A stretch of DNA of 60,503 nucleotides, counting the filler, from Basidiobolus ranarum (taxonomy: Eukaryota): assembly GCA_040143965.1 (NCBI GenBank). It is 2 parts of 2 records of this genome, joined end to end, with 100 filler letters (N's around TTAATTAATTAA, not from the genome) between each part and the next. Parts side by side here need not be neighbours in the genome. Positions count along the whole stretch, not along the records: positions 1 to 30,353 come from JASJQH010000100.1; 1 more part is not named here. One strand, given 5' to 3'. Numbering within the stretch: the first letter of the stretch is position 1; each line of letters begins with the position of its first letter. A program made the translations under genes and the position numbers. Under the pieces are notes generated by a model. The model ran no database searches. It was not told the origin of the DNA and worked only from the letters and a program-made list of their open reading frames with translations. Positions 13,110 through 30,453 of this stretch are shown one piece after another.

Positions 13110-14185
13110 TCAAAAACCAAAGGAATCATCCACATAATCATCATTGATATCTATATCATTATTAATATATGAATCATCATTCACAACAATGGTTTCTCCA
13201 CCATCATATGGTCTATCATACCAATCGTTACGTGGTTCAAATTCATCTGAAATAAATGAACCAACCAAAAGCCCAGCTAAAGCACCACCAGCTAGACCAC
13301 CAATTAGTTTTTTGTTGGAAAACTTCTTACCGCTAGTATTAGTGCTAGCTGATTGTACGGGTGGTGTTAATGGGGCAGGTGCAGGCGCAGGTGCGGGTGC
13401 ACCATTGTATGGTGGGTAACCACTGCGATCATTTGGGTTTCTTGGTGCTTGGTTGGCATATGGAGCGTTTTGAGGTGGACGATAGTAGCCAGAATTTTGG
13501 GGTGGAGGATTGTAGGAAGCGTTTTGAGGTGGAGGATTGTAGGAAGCGTTTTGAGGTGGAGGATAGTAAGGGGAATTTTGAGGTGGGATATTATAGGATG
13601 GGTTTGGAGGTGGAGGATAGTAAGAGGAATTCTGAGGTGGAGGATTGTAGGAGGAATTTTGAGGGGGAGAACGGTACGGAGCATTTTGAGGAGGTGGATA
13701 ATAGGAAGGATATTGAGAGGGAGGACAAGCATTAGAGGTTGGAGGAAGTGAGTTATAAGGAGGAACAGCAGATGGTGGTCTGGCAACATTTGGATTGTAT
13801 GAGGAGTTTCCTTGCAAATAAGGGGCAGTTTGGTTGGTTGGATACGATTGACTTTTTTCTAAGTTTTCGTTATTACGCTGTGGAGGTTGATAGCCACCTT
13901 GTCTAGGCTCGCTACTTGGCATAGGTAGGGGTGAGTTGCTCGAAGAGTATGATGGTTGGCTTGCTTGTGTATCGATAGAACTGTAGGAAGGTGGGGAAGC
14001 ATAGTCATTTTCAGATCTTGGATCGATCCAAGTAGTAACCTGTCGATTGTGGTCAATATCTATATAAAAAAACTGGTTAGCGGTTTGAAAGATAAGCATC
14101 TCTCGATAAACTACTTACAATATGGCTTTCCATCCGGTGTAAACCTTTCCTCCCACCCTGCTGGTAAAGGACCCTTAGAAGACAT
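13110..14185 (-). CDS. WW-domain, Pro/Gln/Asn/Tyr-rich protein (Wwm1-like); 2 exons
   Basis: Exon 1 MSSKGPLPAGWEERFTPDGKP plus exon 2 ...YIDIDHNRQVTTWIDPR form a WW domain. Then PPPQN(A/S)SY repeats and a C-terminal GGLAGGALAGLLVG glycine-zipper. Confidence 0.85.
13465..13705 (-). repeat. Coding minisatellite, ~27-bp unit encoding PPPQN[A/S][S/P]Y[N/Y]
   Basis: On the + strand, ttttgaggtggaggat(t/a)gta... recurs about 9 times. Confidence 0.85.
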
Positions 14186-21008: not shown

Positions 21009-21438
21009 CTAAAGACTGATTCTCAAGTGGACTTCACCTACAGATTTTCCATGCTTGTTTTGCAAGATATACCATCTATCTACGGATCCTTGCGTGGCGA
21101 CATCTTGCAATGAAACGATGGTGGAACCCACTTTATCTGTATCCAAGCCCATCATTTCTCGGTCCAAAAGTTCGACATGTAGTTCGCTATGGCTGTTGTC
21201 AAATTTCAAGTTGAACGACTCGTTGTATATAGGGTTTGCATCATTCCTTCTAGCACTAGTTTTTTGTTTCGAGGTGTATCCATGGCCAGTATAGATCTTG
21301 AAAATCGGATCAATTTTATCGAACAGGTCGTTATTTTTCAAATTGCGCCCTTCAACTGATAACGTATAGGTAAATATAGATGAACGTTAACCAAATCTGT
21401 ACTGGAATTCACTTACTAACTGTAACTTGCACGGACAT
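21009..21438 (-). CDS. Small stand-alone C2-domain protein (paralog A); 2 exons
   Basis: MSVQVTV|IEGRNLKNNDLFDKIDP...ANPIYNESF...LHVELLDRE...DKVG...WYIL...VGEVHLRISL. Upstream TATAAAA on the minus strand near 21480-21487. Confidence 0.9.
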
Positions 21439-21716: not shown

Positions 21717-21724
21717 TATAAATA
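21717..21724 (+). promoter_or_regulatory. TATA box of the CHAP gene
   Basis: TATAAATA begins 46 nt upstream of the ATG at 21763. Confidence 0.55.
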
Positions 21725-21762: not shown

Positions 21763-22284
21763 ATGCTCTTTTTTCAATTTCTTGTATTCTCTTCGTTCAA
21801 CGTTTTTCTCTTGGCGTTACCTATTCGCAACCCCCGGACCAAAGAACTCACCTCTAAGAATATGGGTCGTCTAGCTGACATCCATCTCACCAAGGGCCAA
21901 GGTGATGACCGTAACAACGATGGTGATGGGGGTTATCTTGATTTCCAATTCAAGAATGGCCAGTGTACTGATTGGGCAGATGCTCGTTATTTTGAATTAA
22001 CTGGACATCACATTGATTGGTTCGGAGACGCTTCCACCTGGCCTAATAAAGCTAGAGAGGCTAATGGATGGATTGTATCTAGCGAGCCCCAGGTTCCTTC
22101 CATTATCGTGATTCCACCTGGTGCGCAGGGTACTGGGGGTCCGGGACACGTTGCTATTGTTGAGGATATCAATCCCGATCAGACTGTTTACACTAGCAAC
22201 TTCAACTACAACGGTGGCCCCTACAGAAAAACCTACACTGATTTCCATACCGGGGAGGGTGTATATTTCATATGGCATAAATAG
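21763..22284 (+). CDS. Secreted CHAP-domain (cysteine/histidine-dependent amidohydrolase/peptidase) protein, putative peptidoglycan hydrolase; intronless
   Basis: Hydrophobic N-terminus MLFFQFLVFSSFNVFLLA. CHAP motifs GQCTDWA (catalytic Cys), GDASTW, PQVPSIIV, GHVAIVE (catalytic His) and TSNFNY. Confidence 0.88.
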   Translation: MLFFQFLVFSSFNVFLLALPIRNPRTKELTSKNMGRLADIHLTKGQGDDRNNDGDGGYLDFQFKNGQCTDWADARYFELTGHHIDWFGDASTWPNKAREANGWIVSSEPQVPSIIVIPPGAQGTGGPGHVAIVEDINPDQTVYTSNFNYNGGPYRKTYTDFHTGEGVYFIWHK

Positions 22285-22317
22285 ATTTTAACTTAGACTG
22301 AATAAACAATACTTTAT

Positions 22318-22757
22318 TCAACTCATCGACTTACTCTTGGCGATGATTAGATGAACTTCACCAACTGATTTACCCACTTTATTACTAAGTACATACCATG
22401 AATCAATACAACCGCTCATTTTAAGCTCAGCTAAAGGAATGCCACAAGAGCCCACCTTTTCTGTATCCTTTATTTTACTGTCACCAAGTTCAACATGAAG
22501 CGTATCGTGACGATGGTTAAACTTGAGCTTGAAGGATTCATTCCATGTAGGGTTAGTATCATCCTTGCGAACACTGGTTTTCCCCTTACTCGTGAAGCCA
22601 CGGCCAGTATAAACCTTGATGACAGGATCGATCTTGTCAAACAGATCGTTACTCTGCAAGTTACGAGCTTCAACTAATGACATAGAGATTGAATGGGAGT
22701 TCTGGAATGAGATTTCTTTGGAGTTTACTTACCAACCGTAACTGAGATCTGTGTCAT
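22318..22757 (-). CDS. Small stand-alone C2-domain protein (paralog B); 2 exons
   Basis: MTQISVTV|VEARNLQSNDLFDKIDP...TNPTWNESF...LHVELGD...WYVL...VGEVHLII. Same phase-1 intron position as paralog A. Confidence 0.9.
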
Positions 22758-30353: not shown

Positions 30354-30453
30354 NNNNNNNNNNNNNNNNNNNNNNNNNNNNNNNNNNNNNNNNNNNNTTA
30401 ATTAATTAANNNNNNNNNNNNNNNNNNNNNNNNNNNNNNNNNNNNNNNNNNNN
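30354..30453. other. Scaffold gap: 44 N + TTAATTAATTAA + 44 N (artificial six-frame stop linker)
   Basis: N runs at 30354-30397 and 30410-30453 flank a palindromic TTAATTAATTAA at 30398-30409; total length is exactly 100 nt. Confidence 0.95.

Follow-up and report, generated by a model that had tools for sequence, protein, structure and literature searches.

Single CHAP domains of phages lyse Gram-positive cell walls. In the staphylococcal CHAP enzymes the catalytic relay reads Cys-His-Glu-Asn, with Glu as the third, polar residue that orients the His, and among papain-like enzymes Asn or Asp is common in this third place. Tick Dae amidases exemplify a bacterial wall hydrolase that was domesticated by a eukaryote. 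Other such cases are the GH25 lysozymes (Metcalf et al. 2014, PMC4241558) and the NlpC/P60 proteins of Trichomonas (Pinheiro et al. 2018, PMC6299479), and in the oomycete Saprolegnia parasitica a 7-gene family of secreted CHAP proteins is listed as a candidate for horizontal gene transfer (HGT) (Jiang et al. 2013, PMC3681718, Table 3). Here, we analyzed a 60,503-nucleotide stretch of DNA (the window) from the fungus Basidiobolus ranarum (assembly GCA_040143965.1), which carries an intronless gene for a 173-residue CHAP protein at 21763..22284 on the plus strand. The guts and dung that Basidiobolus inhabits are rich in bacteria. A preliminary description of the window had proposed the gene as an HGT candidate of bacterial type. 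We consider it likely, with a probability of about 0.62, that it belongs to a secreted CHAP family which was acquired from a Ktedonobacteria-like bacterium by an ancestor of Basidiobolus and the Entomophthorales and which acts on bacterial peptidoglycan; within this account, we infer from sequence that the protein is secreted, that peptidoglycan is its substrate and which bond is cut, as well as its biological role and when the transfer took place. The gene and its product are laid out as follows (AF2, AlphaFold2; pLDDT, predicted local distance difference test).

21763..22284, plus strand: intronless coding sequence of the CHAP protein, 173 residues plus stop codon, secreted type (translation of the open reading frame [ORF]; full-length alignment to the B. 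meristosporus protein P0002)

21763..21819, plus strand: hydrophobic, signal peptide-like segment, residues 1 to 19, with a putative cleavage site between the Ala and the Leu of ALP (alignment consensus "ALP," hydropathy)

21820..21936, plus strand: linker, residues 20 to 58, charged, rich in Gly, Asp, and Asn, predicted to be disordered (AF2 pLDDT below 50 at residues 7 to 59)

21937..22281, plus strand: CHAP (peptidase C51) catalytic domain, residues 59 to 173 (Pfam PF05257, AF2, Foldseek)

21964..21966, plus strand: TGT codon of Cys68 (in GQCTDWA), predicted to act as nucleophile, where helix 67-80 begins (sequence, AF2)

22147..22149, plus strand: CAC codon of His129 (in GHVAIVE), the predicted general base (sequence)

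22198..22206, plus strand: Asn146-Phe147-Asn148, equivalent to Glu-x-Asn of staphylococcal CHAP domains (alignment to 2k3a)

The protein matched the Pfam CHAP profile PF05257 over residues 62 to 146 with an E value of 2.8e-15 (57 bits, against a cutoff of 26). This match, obtained by the profile hidden Markov model (HMM) search that the preliminary description had proposed, is far beyond chance. Among sequences in the PDB, the best match was 2k3a, a CHAP protein of Staphylococcus saprophyticus (E value of 1.2e-10), followed by 2lrj, 5t1q, and 9eum, and Cys68 and His129 align with the conserved Cys and His of all four. An AF2 model, built from a 19-sequence alignment, had a mean pLDDT of 73, with values below 50 at residues 7 to 59 and 10-residue block means of 75 to 97 over residues 61 to 173. 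The model displays the papain-like alpha+beta fold of CHAP domains: helix 67-80, which opens with Cys68, is followed by six strands, of which strand 129-136 opens with His129. A Foldseek comparison with the PDB placed 5t1q on top (E value of 2.9e-6; root mean square deviation of 1.9 Å over 112 columns), then 2k3a, 4olk, and 4csh, and also returned 4cgk. All 19 matches at E values of ≤0.001 were CHAP wall hydrolases (5t1q, 2k3a, LysGH15, LysK CHAPk, PcsB, and phage tail lysins), and glutathionylspermidine (Gsp) amidases appeared only at about 1e-2.

Relatives were retrieved by an exhaustive search of 1.84 billion cluster representatives, which yielded 831 matches at E values of ≤1e-3, 256 at ≤1e-10, and 12 at ≤1e-30; taxon names were available for about 30 proteins, besides the 11 loci of the genome scan described below. 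Below the fungal tier, at E values of about 1e-30 to 1e-25 and roughly 50 to 58% identity over residues 55 to 172, lay bacterial proteins, which are about 290 to 360 residues long and carry the CHAP domain at their C terminus. All named proteins below the Basidiobolus tier came from Ktedonobacteria/Chloroflexota (Thermogemmatispora tikiterensis, Dictyobacter vulcani, and metagenome-assembled genomes of Ktedonobacteraceae, including the deep-branching P0132 cluster). A scan of one genome per prokaryote species, seeded with patterns from the fungal family and hence biased to close relatives, confirmed 11 of 23 candidate stretches, all in Chloroflexota/Ktedonobacteria and at 44 to 58% identity. 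Of 201 evenly sampled Chloroflexota genomes, 38 had a match at E values of ≤1e-5. Twelve of these reached ≤1e-20, at identities of up to 60%; the other, weak matches (E values of ≥1.5e-13) included two unpublished genomes. In Ktedonobacteria bacterium brp13 (G002 C1:6649331-6656368) and Dictyobacter alpinus (G001 C1:1401894-1404666), CHAP genes form tandem arrays of up to six copies, and each of these genomes held 12 matches to PF05257, deeply divergent ones included.

Identity to the Ktedonobacteria-type domains was 50 to 60%, versus 32 to 42% for staphylococcal, streptococcal, phage, and other CHAP domains. A phage origin was rejected in view of only 5 weak matches, at 33 to 38% identity, among 50,697 phage records. 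Plasmid matches (68 records, mostly of Staphylococcus, Lactococcus, and Bifidobacterium) all lay at 32 to 42% identity, and Firmicutes and Actinobacteria were on this ground rejected as the nearest source. The protein is not a member of the PcsB family of NCBIfam (NF046104), with 33.9 bits against a cutoff of 450 and a match confined to the CHAP part (profile positions 301 to 386 of 400), nor of the staphylococcal amidase/CHAP equivalogs NF006359 to NF006362 or ScrM (NF052572), with 22 to 31 bits against cutoffs of 400 to 839. The earlier assignment to an SsaA/PcsB-like or phage-like type thus did not stand beyond the shared domain, the Ktedonobacteria proteins being closer. Protein Atlas clusters with the domain are generic CHAP clusters labeled Bacillota and carry no evidence on origin.

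Residue conservation was scored over an alignment of 176 domains, comprising 28 Basidiobolus, 4 Entomophthorales, and 144 other rows. The Cys68 column held Cys in 27 of 28, 4 of 4, and 139 of 144 of these rows, respectively, the His129 column held His in 27, 4, and 143 of them, and the Asn148 column held Asn in 28, 4, and 139; one Basidiobolus row has Tyr instead of His, and another lacks the Cys column. The catalytic Cys and His that had been described as intact (GQCTDWA and GHVAIVE) are therefore residues conserved across the family. It had further been pointed out that the protein reads TSNFN (residues 144 to 148) where SExN is usual. In the alignment to 2k3a, the staphylococcal SEMNYNGGP stands opposite SNFNYNGGP, so that the Glu is indeed replaced, by Asn146. 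The replacement is no fungal novelty: position 146 is Asn in 21 and Asp in 7 Basidiobolus rows, Asn in the 4 Entomophthorales rows, and Asn in 102, Asp in 19, Ser in 14, Ala in 4, and Gly in 3 of the other rows. Because most bacterial rows of the subfamily have Asn here (102 of 144), Asn146 is no marker of fungal change. The distant Chloroflexota outgroup rows that were printed keep the Glu, in SEMNF. Judged from the alignment, TSNFN is a trait that is derived in the Ktedonobacteria-type subfamily as a whole and was passed on to the fungi.

For phylogenetic analysis, P0001 (the public gene model of the window's own gene) and the near-identical rows P0167 to P0191, except P0168, P0177, and P0178, were dropped, as were 4 of 200 domains with fewer than 90 HMM positions. 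A quick unrooted tree of 176 domains recovered Basidiobolus as one group (support of 90 in the Shimodaira-Hasegawa-like approximate likelihood ratio test), with the Entomophthorales and one long-branch metagenome protein beside it (92), versus 143 Ktedonobacteria-type rows. A further tree of 115 rows was built with a close outgroup and without the far outgroups (L024 to L031 and L015/L016) and the long-branch P0143. Here, ten distant Chloroflexota CHAP domains formed a clade (100/100, starred, as are all values cited for this tree), as did the ingroup (100/100) and, within it, the 36 fungal-type rows (100/99). The fungal clade was sister to P0054, a protein of bacterial architecture (97/83); the next clade out comprised Dictyobacter and strain brp13 (99/85), and other Ktedonobacteria clades were more basal. 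The stem of the fungal clade measured 0.54 changes per column. Entomophthorales (100/99; stem of 0.99) were located within a polytomy of Basidiobolus paralogues. Derived residues shared by the fungi and the nearest bacterial clade were found in 1 of 116 columns, too weak a signal to use.

The fungal domains hence grouped with named Ktedonobacteria CHAP domains, apart from those of other Chloroflexota, Firmicutes, Actinobacteria, and phages. These alignments lend good support to a single fungal clade and to its origin from bacteria that were near the Ktedonobacteria and probably among them; strict nesting of the fungi inside the Ktedonobacteria is favored but not proven. Of the HGT proposal in the preliminary description, the horizontal bacterial origin was supported; the gene belongs to a large paralogous family, and the transfer looks old, which is unlike a lone, recent insertion. 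One transfer before the split of Basidiobolus and Entomophthorales, followed by duplication, probably took place and is the simplest account; a later transfer from fungus to fungus is a conceivable alternative.

The fungal family is large. A word-indexed protein search returned 19 proteins, namely, the window's own model, 11 proteins of B. meristosporus, 6 of B. ranarum, and 1 metagenome protein. The remaining top-tier proteins were P0020, P0029, and P0023 of B. meristosporus and P0021, P0022, and P0024 to P0028 of B. ranarum, and in terms of cluster representatives there were at least 14 in B. meristosporus and at least 13 in B. ranarum. Entomophthora muscae contributed at least 6 members (P0100, P0103, P0110, P0194, P0196, and P0197) and Massospora cicadina a partial one (P0128). 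The preliminary description had named a broad vertical distribution across fungi as the pattern that would speak against transfer; among the named matches, the only eukaryotes were Basidiobolus, Entomophthora, and Massospora. A 2,093-residue protein with 16 matching stretches (P0039) was rejected as a family member, as it has no Pfam CHAP domain and only scattered subthreshold or zero-stretch matches, and we regard it as a spurious match to a repetitive protein.

Several members have features of their own. In E. muscae, P0194, P0197, and P0100 (DSO57_1023045/46/47) are encoded on one 260-kb contig under consecutive locus tags, an arrangement that suggests tandem expansion of CHAP paralogues in this species too. 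Two metagenome proteins, P0143 (286 residues) and P0195 (205 residues), form long branches within the Entomophthorales clade; P0143 has a signal-like N terminus followed by a Gly/Asn-rich low-complexity stretch, and both proteins may derive from unsampled fungi of the Entomophthorales group. In P0010, P0015, P0017, and P0018, and partially in P0013, an N-terminal Cys-rich module of about 70 residues (C-x-NGLYCG...C...GC...C) precedes the CHAP domain. This module had no Pfam match. In its Atlas model, P0017 is similar to regions without annotation in secreted wall hydrolases of Myxococcota with M23 and Amidase_2 domains (TM of 0.62 to 0.65 by query, below the naming bar), a lead according to which the module may serve in wall binding.

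The 173-codon frame at 21763..22284 contains no internal stop, exactly as the preliminary description had it. The public gene model at the locus (P0001, 140 residues) begins at Met34. In contrast, the B. meristosporus orthologue P0002 (174 residues) aligns from residue 1 at 73% identity and 100% coverage (82% identity over the domain alone), and its N terminus is similarly hydrophobic and shares the conserved ALP motif. For these reasons, sequence comparison favors the 173-residue model over the shorter one. The best 12-residue Kyte-Doolittle window of the protein scored 2.16, from residue 6, in line with the signal-like N terminus noted earlier. By the same measure (a 12-residue window of ≥1.7 within the first 45 residues), signal-like N termini were present in 23 of 28 Basidiobolus rows and in all 6 full-length E. 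muscae proteins, versus 1 of 10 sampled Ktedonobacteria-type proteins, which open with long hydrophilic stretches. The five Basidiobolus rows that lack one seem to stem from gene models that are truncated or doubtful. The bacterial architecture, in which a long N-terminal region precedes the CHAP domain at the C terminus, is not that of the window protein, with its signal-like peptide and 39-residue linker. Among the paralogues, the region between signal and domain varies widely in length and sequence and includes low-complexity Asn/Gly/Ser tracts.

Around the gene, the following elements were annotated.

21009..21386, minus strand: main exon of a C2-domain gene in the upstream flank (Pfam C2, E value of 3.8e-16)

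21717..21724, plus strand: TATAAATA, candidate TATA box, 46 nucleotides 5' of the ATG (read from the sequence)

22301..22306, plus strand: AATAAA, candidate polyadenylation signal, 17 nucleotides past the stop codon (read from the sequence)

22318..22757, minus strand: C2-domain gene in the downstream flank, convergent with the CHAP gene (Pfam C2, E value of 4.1e-18)

The two C2-domain genes are tandem paralogues, 59% identical to each other, that bracket the CHAP gene from the opposite strand, and the stop codons of the CHAP gene and the downstream C2 gene are 33 bp apart. Directly 5' of the main ORF of each C2 gene, a putative short ATG exon with a GTAAGT donor was read by eye. Farther neighbors are a PEMT gene that is broken into four or more ORF pieces on the minus strand, a gene for an M49-like peptidase, a gene for a TRF2/HOY1 PH-like protein (PH_TRF2_HOY1), and a homeodomain gene; eukaryotic, intron-bearing genes are thus located on both sides, as the preliminary description had stated. 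The GC content of the CHAP ORF (0.46) is slightly above that of its neighbors (0.40 to 0.44), its GC content at third codon positions (GC3, 0.448) lies within their range (0.27 to 0.52), and GC is even along the window. Runs of N in the window are confined to 30354-30397 and 30410-30453 (44 bases each), the nearest about 8 kb from the CHAP gene. At 13110-14114 on the minus strand, a 334-residue frame with Pro/Gln/Asn/Tyr repeats (PPQN...SYNPPPQN) and an unusually low GC3 of 0.27 had no Pfam match. The CHAP gene is part of a genuine fungal chromosome.

We propose that an ancestor of the Basidiobolus/Entomophthorales fungi took up the gene from a Ktedonobacteria-like (Chloroflexota) bacterium. 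After the transfer, only the C-terminal catalytic domain would have been kept, the long hydrophilic N terminus of the bacterial protein having been replaced by a signal peptide of eukaryotic type and a short linker without order; the base composition would have shifted to that of the host, and the family would have multiplied to at least 13 to 14 cluster representatives per Basidiobolus genome. The preprotein would be cut near Ala19/Leu20 and exported. Asn146/Asn148 would orient His129, which in turn would activate Cys68 for its attack on an amide bond of bacterial peptidoglycan, either the MurNAc-L-Ala bond or one in the stem peptide or cross-bridge. Bacteria met in gut contents, dung, soil, and insect cadavers may in this way be weakened or lysed, in the service of competition and/or feeding on wall material. 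These are the habitats of the carriers, with Basidiobolus in gut, dung, and soil and Entomophthora and Massospora in insect cadavers (PMC9391592).

Several observations weigh against this account and bear on its rivals. When the tree was rooted with eight far outgroups (Firmicutes, Actinobacteria, one cyanobacterium, and two phages) and every fourth bacterial P-row plus the named ones, the ingroup was recovered (92/90), the Ktedonobacteria-type rows formed a clade (97/90, starred), and the root fell between the Entomophthorales and the rest (83/67), amid many long branches. The best close-outgroup tree nests the fungi in Ktedonobacteria, the point that the phylogeny suggested in the preliminary description was meant to probe, but a plain sister position is still left to them: constraining the 69 Ktedonobacteria-type rows to a single clade cost just 4.51 log-likelihood units (P = 0.448 in the approximately unbiased [AU] test). 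The alignment has only 116 columns, the bootstrap of the close-outgroup tree was not fully settled (correlation of 0.987), the immediate sister P0054 is assigned by its bacterial-type architecture only, and most bacterial rows of the trees carry no taxon. Other Entomophthorales or other fungi may hold copies beyond the 150 listed matches. Finally, given Asn in place of the Glu of the staphylococcal Cys-His-Glu-Asn relay, activity cannot be assumed from the sequence. The far-outgroup root next to the Entomophthorales is probably due to long-branch attraction. It stands as a conflicting result, which we take as a probable artifact because a tree constrained to hold the 33 fungal-type rows together was better than the free search by 3.71 log-likelihood units (AU test, P = 0.557) and because the closer outgroup gave a clean result. 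A gene of old fungal or eukaryotic stock, passed on vertically and lost from nearly all other fungi, or a transfer from a fungus to Ktedonobacteria, would agree with the fungal rows at the base of the far-outgroup tree and with the sister relation that the AU test allows. We nevertheless judge either course of events very unlikely, since the wider CHAP family was bacterial or phage in every collection searched, the two Ktedonobacteria genomes with 12 PF05257 matches each include deeply divergent ones, the close-outgroup tree nests the fungi in Ktedonobacteria diversity with starred support, and the named eukaryotes are confined to three genera. For bacterial contamination or misassembly, which would make the ORF foreign to the fungal chromosome, only the bacterial affinity of the domain speaks. 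The chance of this is close to nil: the sequence is free of N for more than 8 kb on either side, intron-bearing eukaryotic genes lie 40 to 400 bp away on both sides, the base composition matches that of the host, the closest bacterial protein is only about 60% identical, two other Basidiobolus assemblies have orthologues and paralogues on contigs as long as 268 kb, and the N terminus resembles a eukaryotic signal peptide.

With a transferred, chromosomal gene as the preferred reading, the alternatives that are left concern function. The antibacterial effector proposed in the preliminary description is a plausible role to judge from the domain, and the lifestyles of the carriers would fit killing, feeding, or the trimming of immunogenic fragments alike. 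The same chemistry might serve as no weapon at all, by digesting wall debris or by trimming peptidoglycan so that sensors of the animal or insect host are evaded. Such a use would suit a family common to gut-dwelling or saprobic Basidiobolus and the insect-pathogenic Entomophthora and Massospora, which differ in lifestyle but all meet host immunity and many bacteria; large numbers of paralogues are typical of digestive secretomes, and sequence does not separate killing from feeding. The closest solved structures, however, are lytic enzymes, and single-domain CHAP proteins can lyse cells from outside, so that we regard this use as the less probable one, though one to be reckoned with. A substrate other than peptidoglycan (a fungal wall or surface protein, or a gamma-glutamyl or glutathionyl amide as in Gsp amidase) or a weakened binding protein is unlikely. 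CHAP does include the Gsp amidases seen by Foldseek at about 1e-2, the relay Glu is replaced by Asn, and with one Basidiobolus row lacking the His (Tyr) and one the Cys, some paralogues may be nonenzymes. Yet Cys, His, and Asn148 are near-invariant across the 28 fungal paralogues, the bacterial relatives, which presumably act on their own walls, likewise have Asn or Asp at position 146 as a rule, and in both sequence and fold the protein matches wall hydrolases far better than Gsp amidase. Action on bacterial peptidoglycan thus stays the preferred function.

More tentatively, one may picture that the capture from mycelial soil Ktedonobacteria by an ancestor of the Entomophthoromycotina gave rise to a large, diversifying, secreted antibacterial arsenal, some of it fused to Cys-rich targeting modules, which would help Basidiobolus to shape the microbiota in reptile and amphibian guts and Entomophthora and Massospora to keep insect cadavers free of bacteria. 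This would amount to an innate "lysin" system of fungi, with paralogues specialized by wall type, and we offer it as a possibility on the doubtful side. If the proposed family does act on bacteria, these fungi would possess a second, protein-based route to do so beside their secondary metabolites, and their interplay with bacteria in herptile guts and insect cadavers would gain a concrete handle. Work on enzybiotics could also profit from small single-domain CHAP proteins that a eukaryote is able to fold and secrete.

Secondary-metabolite genes of bacterial derivation are known from Basidiobolus (Tabima et al. 2020, PMC7466969); the main text of that paper, searched by term, gave no mention of CHAP or peptidoglycan. 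We found no description of a CHAP family in Basidiobolus or Entomophthorales in the literature searched, including PMC9391592, PMC8778642, and the main texts of two HGT surveys (PMC7466969 and PMC11291939), the supplements of which may list such genes.

Compared with described proteins, the fungal family is closest to the CHAP proteins of Ktedonobacteria (T. tikiterensis WP_112429574 and D. vulcani GER87773), the domains of which are 50 to 60% identical to the fungal one. Both groups share the Cys, His, and Asn148 positions, the change of the relay Glu to Asn, Asp, or Ser, and the C-terminal ...GVxF[IV]W[HY], and both are multicopy, in Ktedonobacteria partly in tandem. They differ in that the bacterial proteins of about 290 to 360 residues have a long hydrophilic N terminus, whereas the window protein of 173 residues has a signal-like N terminus and a short linker. 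The staphylococcal CHAP proteins (2k3a, SsaA type, and the amidase 5t1q) and PcsB (4cgk) belong to the same Pfam family, have the same fold with aligned Cys and His, and, in the staphylococcal case, share an NYNGGP-like stretch after the third strand. At about 29 to 35% identity, they are not the nearest relatives, and the window protein lacks both the coiled coil of PcsB and an amidase or SH3b partner domain. Phage lysins (LysK CHAPk, 4csh; LysGH15, 4olk; and the phi812 hub, 9eum) again have the same fold, with 21 to 30% identity in structural alignments. The GH25 lysozymes, the NlpC/P60 proteins, the Saprolegnia CHAP proteins, and Dae follow the same concept as the fungal family, in which a bacterial peptidoglycan-degrading enzyme is combined with a eukaryotic secretion signal and duplication; the Saprolegnia proteins are likened to it by concept and domain name alone. 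In contrast to these cases, the recipient is a lineage of Entomophthoromycotina and the apparent donor belongs to the Ktedonobacteria, an unusual source for HGT to eukaryotes, and GH25 and NlpC/P60 are other enzyme families. A domesticated bacterial wall hydrolase in a eukaryote is therefore of a known kind, and what stands out here is the size of the family, the apparent donor, and the fact that Basidiobolus and Entomophthorales both have it.

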